In this document: piece after piece, positions 1-4,112 of the stretch
Layout of the letters: every line of letters starts with the position of its first letter
How positions within the stretch are numbered: position 1 is the stretch's first letter
IMG/VR virus record: IMGVR_UViG_2690316286_000011
Reading direction: 5' to 3' (one strand)
DNA length: 4,112 nucleotides
DNA from: a virus
Lineage: Duplodnaviria > Heunggongvirae > Uroviricota > Caudoviricetes
Program-made: the position numbers

Positions 1-3000
1 CAAACTGCGATCGATTCAGATGCCATTTTGCAGTTATGGTTTTGAAGTTCGCAAAAACGGCGTATTAATCGCATCCAGAGAAACTAAAGGTGCCATTCCC
101 GGTAGTTACAGTGCAGTTATTGATATGCCTAGTGGTGGTGGTAGCGTCACTCTGGAGTTTAAGATTTTCCAGAAAGGCAATCAGGGGGCAGGCAATATCA
201 CCGACTGTACGGTGATTGTGACCAAAAAAGCGGCTTCCGGCATCAGTATTCGTTGAAATATTTATAACCCCAATAAATGGCGTCAGGAATGACGCCTTTT
301 TTATTGCAGAAAAGCGAGAGGTAATTATGCGTAAAGTTTGTGCAGCCATTTTGTCCGCAGCCATTTGCCTGGCCGTATCCGGTGCGCCTGCATGGGCGTC
401 TGAACATCAGTCCACGCTGAGCGCGGGGTATCTTCATGCCCGGACCAACGTTCCCGGCAGTGATGATCTGAACGGGATTAACGTGAAATACCGTTATGAG
501 TTTACGGATACGCTGGGGCTGGTGACGTCATTCAGCTATGCAGGAGACAAGAATCGCCAGCTGACCCGTTACAGCGATACCCGCTGGCATGAAGATTCCG
601 TGCGTAACCGCTGGTTCAGCGTGATGGCGGGGCCGTCTGTGCGCGTGAATGAATGGTTCAGCGCGTATGCGATGGCGGGTGTGGCTTACAGCCGTGTGTC
701 GACTTTTTCCGGGGATTATATCCGCGTAACTGACAATAAGGGGAAAACGCACGATGTGCTGACCGGAAGTGATGACGGTCGCCACAGCAACACGTCTCTG
801 GCGCACTGACGGTTTCATCGTGGGTGTCGGTTATAAATTCTGATTAGCCAGGTAACACAGTGTTATGACAGCCCGCCGGTTCAGGCGGGCTTTTTTGTGG
901 GGTGAATATGGCAGTAAAGATTTCAGGTGTACTGAAAGACGGCACAGGAAAACCGGTACAGAACTGCACAATCCAGCTGAAAGCAAAACGTAACAGCACC
1001 ACGGTGGTGGTGAACACGCTGGCCTCAGAAAATCCGGATGAAGCCGGGCGTTACAGCATGGACGTTGAGTACGGTCAGTACAGCGTTATTCTGTTGGTGG
1101 AAGGATTCCCGCCGTCACATGCCGGGACCATCACCGTGTATGAAGATTCCCGACCCGGTACGCTGAATGATTTTCTCGGTGCCATGACGGAGGATGATGC
1201 CCGTCCGGAGGCACTGCGCCGTTTTGAGCTGATGGTGGAAGAGGTGGCGCGTAACGCGTCCGCGGTGGCACAGAACACGGCAGCCGCGAAGAAATCAGCC
1301 AGCGATGCCAGCACATCAGCCCGTGAGGCGGCAACCCATGCGACTGATGCTGCAGATTCAGCACGTGCAGCCAGCACGTCAGCCGGACAGGCCGCTTCGT
1401 CGGCTCAGTCAGCGTCTTCCAGCGCAGGAACGGCATCAACAAAGGCCACTGAAGCCTCAAAAAGTGCTGCCGCTGCAGAGTCCTCAAAAAGCGCGGCGGC
1501 TACCAGTGCCGGTGCGGCGAAAACGTTAGAAACGAATGCGGCAGCGTCACAACAATCAGCAGCCACTTCTGCATCCACCGCGACCACGAAAGCGTCAGAA
1601 GCTGCCACCTCAGCCCGGGATGCGTCGGCTTCAAAAGAGGCGGCAAAATCATCAGAAACGAACGCATCATCAAGCGCCAGTAGCGCAGCTTCCTCGGCGA
1701 CGGCGGCTGCAAATTCTGCGAAGGCGGCCAAAACGTCCGAGACGAACGCCAGGTCTTCTGAAACGGCAGCGGGACAGAGTGCCTCAGCTGCGGCAGGCTC
1801 AAAAACAGCGGCTGCGTCGTCTGCCAGCGCCGCGTCAACAAGTGCCGGGCAGGCCTCAGCCAGTGCCACCGCCGCCGGAAAATCGGCAGAAAGCGCCGCA
1901 TCATCCGCTTCAACAGCCACAACGAAGGCTGGCAAAGCCACTGAGCAAGCCACTGCAGCAGCGAGGTCTGCTTCTGCAGCAAAAACCTCTGAAACAAATG
2001 CAAAGACTTCAGCAGACAATGCTGCTTCCTCTAAGGCAGCAGCCGCATCGTCAGCCAGTTCAGCGGCGTCATCGGCATCATCTGCGTCTGCTTCAAAAGA
2101 TGAGGCGACCAGACAAGCGTCAGCAGCGAAAGGTAGTGCCACGACAGCAACAACGAAAGCATCAGAGGCGGCAGGCAGTGCGACGGCTGCATCTCAGAGC
2201 AAAGTTGCTGCTGAATCCGCGGCAACGCGCGCCGAGACAGCAGCAAAACGGGCAGAGGATATTGCATCCGCCGTGGCGCTGGAGGATGCGAGCACGACGA
2301 AAAAGGGGATAGTACAGCTCAGCAGTGCGACCAACAGCACTTCCGAGTCACTGGCGGCAACGCCAAAAGCGGTTAAGGCGGTAATGGGTGAAACGAACAA
2401 GAAAGCGCCCTTAAATAGTCCTGCACTGACCGGAACGCCAACAACACCAACTGCGCGACAGGGAACGAATAATACCCAAATCGCAAGCACGGCTTTCGTT
2501 ATGGCTGCGATTGCCGCNNNNNNNNNNNNNNNNNNNNNNNNNNNNNNNNNNNNNNNNNNNNNNNNNNNNNNNNNNNNNNNNNNNNNNNNNNNNNNNNNNN
2601 NNNNNNNNNNNNNNNNNNNNNNNNNNNNNNNNNNNNNNNNNNNNNNNNNNNNNNNNNNNGCGGCGCTGGGCAACGACCCGAATTTTGCGACCACCATGAC
2701 TAACGCGCTTGCGGGTAAGCAACCGAAAGATGCCACTCTGACGGCGCTGGCGGGGCTTGCTACTGCGGCAGACAGGTTTCCGTATTTTACGGGGAATGAT
2801 GTCGCCAGCCTGGCAACCCTGACAAAAGTCGGGCGGGATATTCTTGCGAAATCGACCGTTGCCGCCGTTATCGAATACCTCGGTTTACAGGAAACGGTAA
2901 ATCAGGCTTCTGGCGCATTACAGAAAAACCAGAACGGCGCAGATATTCCGGGGAAAGATACCTTCACCAAAAATATTGGTGCCTGCCGCGCATATAGCTC

Positions 3001-4112
3001 ATGGCTGAATATTGGTGGCGATAGTCAGGTCTGGACAACCGCGCAATTTATTTCGTGGCTGGAGAGTCAGGGAGCATTTAACCATCCTTACTGGATGTGC
3101 AAAGGCTCATGGGCTTATGCAAATAATAAGGTCATTACAGATACAGGTTGCGGAAATATTTGTCTTGCAGGTGCTGTGGTGGAAGTTATTGGCACTCGCG
3201 GCGCAATGACCATACGCGTTACCACGCCGAGCACGTCCAGCGGTGGCGGAATTACTAACGCTCAATTCACTTATATTAATCATGGTGATGCTTACGCTCC
3301 TGGCTGGCGACGAGACTACAACACGAAAAATCAACAACCTGCATTTGCTTTAGGGCAAACAGGAAGCACTGTCGGAAATGATAAAGCTGTTGGCTGGAAC
3401 TGGAATAGCGGGGTCTATAACGCAAACATTGGTGGCGCATCGACATTAATCCTCCACTTCAATATGAATACGGGGAGCTGCCCTGCTGTACAGTTCCGCG
3501 TGAATTACAGGAACGGCGGTATTTTTTATCGTTCAGCGCGTGATGGTTATGGCTTTGAAGCTGACTGGTCAGAGTTTTACACCACAACCCGCAAACCCTC
3601 TGCGGGAGATGTTGGTGCATATACGCAGGCAGAATGTAACTCAAGGTTTATTACAGGTATTCGCCTTGGTGGTCTGTTATCTGTTCAGACATGGAATGGT
3701 CCCGGATGGTCTGACAGGTCAGGTTATGTTGTTACCGGTTCCGTTAACTCAAACAGAGATGAACTAATTGATACAACTCAGGCAAGGCCAATTCAGTATT
3801 GCATTAATGGGACGTGGTATAACGCGGGGAGTATTTAACGATGATGCACTTAAAAAACATTTCTGCTGGTAATCCTGAAACAAAAGAGCAATACCAGCTA
3901 ACGAAACAATTTAACATCAAATGGCTTTATACAGAGGATGGGAAAAACTGGTATGAGGAACAAAAGAACTTTCAGCCTGATACGTTGAAAATGGTCTATG
4001 ACCACAACGGCGTTATTATTTGTATTGAAAAGGATGTTTCAGCAATTAATCCGGAAGGCGCAAGCGTCGTTGAGGTTCCTGATATTACAGCAAATCGCCG
4101 GGCTGATATTTC

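Follow-up and report, generated by a model that had tools for sequence, protein, structure and literature searches.

Genetic knowledge of the S'-type tail fibre tip of bacteriophage Mu goes back to 1980 (Van de Putte et al. 1980, as listed in the references of PMC11821841 and PMC4406740), and invertible fibre tips have also been documented in lambdoid elements, e14 being the example (PMC4272514). The present analysis deals with a stretch of 4,112 nucleotides (nt; the window) from a virus of the class Caudoviricetes, IMG/VR record IMGVR_UViG_2690316286_000011, and in particular with the C-terminal domain (tip) of the side tail fibre protein Stf encoded on it. Very probably this domain is the S'-type variable tip of the invertible tail-fibre cassette of the Mu/P1/P2 family, here forming the C-terminus of a lambdoid Stf. 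Exchange of this tip cassette among phages was reportedly described in the early 1990s by Haggard-Ljungquist et al. and Sandmeier et al., both in 1992, and the window adds a further case of one tip cassette moving among Mu-like, P1-like, P2-like and lambdoid phages.

The closest described system is that of Mu, in which S' (gp52; PDB 8JU3) and U' (gp51) provide the same tip, bordered on its 5' side by the same crossover site and followed by the same chaperone gene. The constant part of the Mu fibre is Sc, whereas in the window a P2-H-like segment on a lambdoid Stf takes its place, and Mu has a contractile tail while the tip in the window would sit on the side fibre of a siphovirus. The C segment that Cin inverts in phages P1 (Sv') and P7 (Sv) contains a homologous tip and a U'-type chaperone and follows the same inversion logic, although P1 S' differs by two gaps, some 13% of positions and another set of residues at seven sites within tip residues 158-193, and the invertible segment of P1 and P7 begins about 0.6 kb further upstream in the fibre gene. 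Among P2-like prophages (P88; Escherichia coli FDAARGOS_943), the part from 2864 to 4112 is found with 100% nucleotide identity in locus L019 and with three mismatches in locus L001, and the P2-like H genes share the constant part at 2660-2908 with the window at 99-100%; the N-terminal two thirds of these genes are of the P2 H type, whereas those of the window are of the lambdoid Stf type. Lambda Stf (orf-401/orf-314) has the N-terminal domain and shaft in common with the window (81% amino acid identity over 352 residues of orf-401), as well as the segment around AALGNDP.FATTMTNALAGKQPK, but its tip is unrelated, its Tfa is unrelated to the visible N-terminal part of the tfa product, and it lacks an inversion site. 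In the Pin-invertible P segment of e14 (stfE/stfP, tfaE/tfaP, pinE) a serine invertase swaps fibre C-termini in a lambdoid element (PMC4272514). As a sequence relative e14 was rejected, given that neither tip nor chaperone showed significant similarity and no site was found within 7 mismatches of the 28-mer of the window; the likeness is one of mechanism only.

The tip comprises 314 codons (2894-3835, + strand; 2894-3838 with the stop codon) at the end of a single open reading frame (ORF). Its 945 nucleotides are 95.2% identical to Mu S', 97.2% to D108 S', 97.9% to P88, 95.8% to P7 Sv and 85% to P1 Sv', and 100% identical to a silent tip copy adjoining a recombinase gene in the P2-like prophage of E. 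coli FDAARGOS_943. At the protein level identity amounts to 98.4% for Mu S' (over 314 residues), 98.4% for D108 S', 99.0% for P88, 95.5% for P7, 95.2% for SfMu and 86.9% for P1, in alignments that are free of gaps except with P1. Only five residues separate the tip from Mu S' (K11Q, S36A, F228I, L262S and S286G), as compared to 5 for D108 S' and 3 for P88. A search of solved structures returned PDB 8JU3 ("Tail fiber protein S,Tail fiber protein S'") over the whole tip with E=7e-219; this entry, a crystal structure, is labelled Mu gp52 (PMC11821841), and the structure paper is cited in PMC11915804 as Mori et al. 2024, Virology 593:110017. An earlier note on this DNA had called the domain divergent, which is not in agreement with such values. 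In contrast, its suggestion of a receptor-binding module and horizontally exchanged host-range determinant was borne out, the same module being present with 85-100% nucleotide identity on fibre genes of Mu-like (Mu, D108, SfMu), P1-like (P1, P7, D6, RCS47), P2-like (P88, prophages) and lambdoid phages. Full-length copies occur in 333 of 5426 complete E. coli genomes, and matches extend to 192 plasmid records and 1350 protein clusters. Pfam family PF12604 (gp37_C) matches residues 154-247 of the tip only, with 25.1 bits against a gathering cut-off of 22.5, and a precomputed match exists in only some of the homologues. Judged by its sequence, the tip is thus a near-identical copy of a host-range cassette that has already been characterised.

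The features by which the domain had first been recognised are all present. The four motifs quoted by the earlier note map to 3083-3130, 3140-3172, 3392-3436 and 3794-3835, and the tip contains 7 Cys, 12 Trp, 13.1% Gly and 8.9% Asn, as compared to 1 Cys, no Trp, 4.7% Gly and 3.6% Asn in the remainder of Stf. With the exception of C90 (nt 3161-3163), which alternates with His and is replaced by it in about half of the homologues, the seven Cys are invariant in 32 homologues, as are nearly all Trp residues. The domain does not resemble a His-rich tip of the lambda Stf / T4 gp37 type: the best BLASTP match with the lambda tip has E=0.85, and the last 150 residues contain 1 His in the window and 14 in lambda, in accordance with what the earlier note had supposed. 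The same note had attributed a His-rich C-terminus to P2 H as well, which is incorrect since P2 H has only 2 His in its last 150 residues. The last 66 or so residues of P2 H are in fact shared with the tip (35% identity, E=7e-8), and this is also the sole part of the tip that is common to both Mu S and P2 H, at 35-39% identity.

With respect to base composition, the domain had been described as AT-richer, with a guanine plus cytosine (GC) content of about 38% in sampled 60-nt stretches against 63% in the shaft. The drop is real, but its size was overstated: the tip has 47.3% GC and the shaft 60.4%, and only 11% of the 60-nt windows in the tip are at or below 40%. Most of this contrast is due to amino acid composition, because GC at second codon positions reaches 0.77 in the shaft (1201-2300, + strand), which is rich in Ala and Ser; Stf upstream of the tip (908-2893, mostly shaft) consists of 28% Ala and 16% Ser. 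At third codon positions the value is 0.42 in the tip and 0.48 in the shaft (z=1.6); the tip lies below the constant part next to it (0.62, z=3.0) and also below the N-terminus (0.58, z=2.7). The downstream tfa gene, at 0.39, is at the same level as the tip, and since both are below the constant part, tip and chaperone form a somewhat AT-richer unit.

The tip is preceded by a crossover site of the gix/cix type at 2868-2893 (+ strand), which reads TTATCGAATACC-TC-GGTTTACAGGAA in the window and TTATCCAAAACC-TC-GGTTTACAGGAA at both boundaries of the Mu G segment, as found from an alignment that included loci L001 and L003. Over its 26 nucleotides it differs from Mu gix at 2 positions, and the division into half-sites and core follows the published gix consensus. 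Homology with Mu begins at 2865, and Mu S and S' diverge six shared bases past the site. Because the site ends at 2893, the start given to the domain by the earlier note coincides with the point where a crossover site of the Gin/Cin type ends on its 3' side; that note did see the site, but did not draw its meaning as one half of a Gin/Cin-type invertible cassette. No other site of this type was found within the window. Behind the tip lies the tfa gene for a U'-type tail-fibre assembly chaperone (3841-4112, + strand), of which the first 90 codons are visible before the window end cuts the gene. This N-terminal part is 96.7% identical to Mu U' and 72% to P2 G at the amino acid level, matches the tail fiber chaperone family phrog_24494 with E=6e-57, and gave no match with lambda Tfa. 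The N-terminal domain of such chaperones is said to bind the C-terminal region of the fibre (a finding attributed to North et al. in Nat Microbiol, 2019), which would fit a joint transfer of tip and chaperone.

A second, inverted site together with an alternative cassette is present in relatives of the locus (L003, L019, L063 and L065). In the prophages of E. coli 63-2 and 90-9280, U' is followed by an inverted U-type tfa, a fragment of an alternative tip and the second inverted site at about 3.0 kb from the first, with a recombinase remnant of 64 amino acids at the prophage end; in the P2-like locus L019 the two inverted sites are likewise 3.0 kb apart. By analogy to these relatives, a second inverted site (...TTCCTGTAAACCGAGGT...), another tip and the chaperone belonging to it, and a complete or remnant serine invertase would be expected about 3 kb downstream, outside the window, and inversion would then exchange the S' tip for the alternative one wherever an invertase is available. 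Separately, we noted the element pZ1323HEC0355-3 (L065/L066, NZ_CP148365.1), a circle of 45.9 kb that carries lambdoid J, lom, stf with the S' tip and both sites, its invertible fibre cassette being complete, as well as a full-length Gin-like invertase gene (product 55% identical to Mu Gin) beside the partition genes parB and sopA; it is apparently a phage-plasmid.

The gene that carries the tip (stf, 908-3838, + strand; ATG at 908, stop codon at 3836-3838) comprises 976 codons if a run of 142 N at 2518-2659, which is in frame, is read through. Its lambdoid character follows from the prophage tail fibre N-terminal domain PF08400 (E=1e-71) and from the gene order J-lom-stf-tfa, with the proviso that the continuity of the ORF crosses the anomalous N-run. 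A search of NCBIfam yielded zero matches for Stf, the tip or Tfa. According to its matches, stf is mosaic: the N-terminus and shaft are lambdoid, the distal constant part (2297-2867, + strand; the equivalent of Sc) is P2-H-like, and the tip is that of Mu S'. The constant part is common to P2-like H genes and has 71% amino acid identity to residues 196-437 of P2 H. Positions 1-1920 of the window are best matched, at 100%, by lambdoid IMG/VR contigs, positions 2047-2517 by the lambdoid stf contig L044, also at 100%, and positions 2660-4112 by the P2-like loci L019 (100%) and L001 (3 mismatches). In lambdoid phages that lack the S' tip matching ends at 2367-2379, and in P2-like H loci it begins at 2297-2312; the acquired block therefore is larger than the tip and begins near 2300-2380 rather than at 2894. 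The joint itself (2297-2379), which encodes KKGIVQLSSATNSTSESLAATPKAVKAV, is a zone of overlap between lambdoid-only and P2-H-like homology. In E. coli 90-9280 (L063, 5280-5332) overlapping matches at the KKGIVQLSSATNSTSESLAATPKAVKAV segment suggest a duplication that lengthens its stf; this longer gene was considered as a counterpart of the N-run and rejected, as the duplication is located near 2297-2379 and not at the N-run.

In every relative examined, the segment masked by the N-run measures 49 nt, encoding LVDSSPDALNTLNELA, so that the 142 nt in the window represent an excess of 93 nt or 31 codons. A version of 125-155 nt between the exact flanks was not found in IMG/VR. Six IMG/VR contigs share the junction of constant part, gix and S' tip, 36 share a 61-mer at 2400-2460, and none contains the whole window. 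The N-run may stand for a gap or wrong join made in scaffolding, for masked sequence, or for an insertion that it conceals.

As regards specificity, the earlier note had left the receptor of the module unassigned, but for Mu S' the receptor class has been published as lipopolysaccharide (LPS). The two alternative Mu fibres, gp49/gp50 and gp51/gp52, differ in the part of the LPS core that they recognise (PMC11821841), and S' is quoted to recognise Glc-beta1,6-Glc of Erwinia LPS (Sandulache et al. 1985, in bioRxiv 10.1101/2022.07.24.501295). The hosts given for Mu G(-) include E. coli C, Citrobacter, Enterobacter, Serratia, Erwinia and Shigella sonnei, and not E. coli K-12 (PMC4406740; bioRxiv 10.1101/2022.07.24.501295). 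On the basis of this literature on the G(-) fibre and the sequence identity with Mu S', the most likely function of the tip would be binding to the LPS core, by which adsorption of the carrier phage would be extended or redirected. Following what is described for Mu, three chains would form the fibre tip, with folding starting at the C-terminus and helped by U', and binding of the tip to the LPS core would set which enterobacteria are adsorbed. Seven positions between tip residues 158 and 193 (nt 3365-3472) split the compared tips into two groups: Mu, D108, P88 and the window have S, T, G, N, N, G and T, while SfMu, P7 and P1 have a different set. These positions may form a specificity-determining patch, and as the window carries the Mu/D108 set, a specificity like that of Mu G(-) is favoured.

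Several points weigh against assigning to the window a Mu-like specificity, a switchable cassette and a natural link to a lambdoid fibre. Gp49 of SfMu is 96% identical to Mu S' (18 changes in the authors' comparison) and yet has another host range (PMC4406740), and P1 S' is reported to require O-antigen (bioRxiv 10.1101/2022.07.24.501295), so receptor specificity cannot be read from identity alone. An AlphaFold2 model of the tip reached a mean predicted local distance difference test score of only 32, with an alignment of 32 sequences that are all at least 87% identical, and gives no support for the fold. Furthermore, the window ends at 4112, before any second site, alternative tip or invertase, the invertase of two lambdoid relatives (L003, L063) is only the 64-residue remnant mentioned above, and the link of the tip to lambdoid Stf crosses the anomalous N-run, at which the best-matching relative changes. 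A different reading is that the fold is the same while the receptor has shifted, the five substitutions relative to Mu S' altering the glycan that is recognised, as in SfMu and P1 S'. Small changes do shift the host range within this family of tips (PMC4406740; bioRxiv 10.1101/2022.07.24.501295), and five residues do separate the tip from Mu S'. However, the residues at the seven positions are those of Mu and D108 and not those of SfMu, P7 and P1, the tips of D108 (S') and P88 differ from that of the window by 5 and 3 residues, and three of the five differences are within the first 40 or last 55 residues of the tip, which makes a shifted receptor improbable. It is even harder to believe that the five substitutions confer a receptor preference that has not been described, or else that the N-run hides a real insertion of 31 codons in the LVDSSPDALNTLNELA collar, which is otherwise invariant in this family of fibres; neither is indicated by the evidence.

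The position of the N-run bears on a different explanation: in scaffolding, a lambdoid stf contig would have been linked across a gap to 2660-4112 from a co-resident P2-like prophage, where this part belongs to an H gene, and the tip would not be the C-terminus of this Stf. The excess length of the run would agree with this, as would the behaviour of the matches: L044 drops from 100% over 2047-2517 to 96.4% past the gap and then has another tip, L019 and L001 match 2660-4112 at 100% and have just 90% before the gap, and none of the loci compared is highly similar on both sides. The change of partner coincides with the over-long N-run. Nevertheless, lambdoid stf, constant part, S' tip and U' follow each other without a break in 31-34 complete E. 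coli genomes and also in the circular 45.9-kb element, the sequence just before the gap (2401-2517) already resembles P2 H at 96-97%, the reading frame is preserved across the N-run, the N stretch may be a deliberate mask, and recombination in a conserved segment is the expected natural route to mosaics of this kind. We therefore regard an artefact as unlikely, and the identity of the tip is unaffected whether the join is real or not. A somewhat better case can be made for a frozen relic, a cassette that is present in a decaying prophage but no longer switches and maybe is not expressed. The neighbouring lom gene has a frameshifting deletion of 83 nt, and the recombinase remnant in L003 and L063 points in the same direction. 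Against this, the visible sequence shows no break in the frames of stf and tfa, the crossover site is intact, and a full-length invertase is present in one relative of the same architecture; moreover, the invertases Gin, Cin, Pin and Hin can stand in for one another in trans. A relic is thus still a minority possibility next to an S'-type tip in an invertible cassette on a lambdoid fibre. For the latter, the practical value is one of annotation, as a specific label can replace "unknown receptor-binding domain", and the solved structure 8JU3 allows the few substitutions of the tip to be mapped. The finding opens no new question and calls for re-annotation rather than pursuit.

The remainder of the window is the 3' end of a lambdoid tail gene cluster, as derived from the ORF list and Pfam matches. 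The last codons of J (PF12421) extend up to 256, and the first 32 nucleotides, in the region for the J C-terminus, are unmatched in all lambdoid relatives, even in those that are 100% identical from position 33 onwards; they may mark another mosaic joint. The lom gene (PF06316) is found at 327-809. Its 83-nt deletion is located between short CTGGCG repeats and shifts the frame (327-843), so that the protein has 160 instead of the 199 amino acids found in relatives. A 50-mer across the deletion junction occurs in 10 IMG/VR contigs and is absent, by exact search, from the genome contig collection; because of these 10 contigs the deletion can be regarded as a circulating allele and not as a sequencing error. 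No sigma-70-like promoter was found within 200-1000. Terminator-like hairpins with T-runs are located after J (279-296) and after lom (870-891), the latter 16 nt 5' of the stf ATG. Finally, two long ORFs overlap the shaft region, one on the minus strand (1405-2142; 245 amino acids) and one in another frame of the plus strand (1536-2312; 258 amino acids). They are probably by-products of the Ala/Ser-rich, GC-skewed repeats, and a comparable antisense ORF, orf206b, is annotated in lambda.

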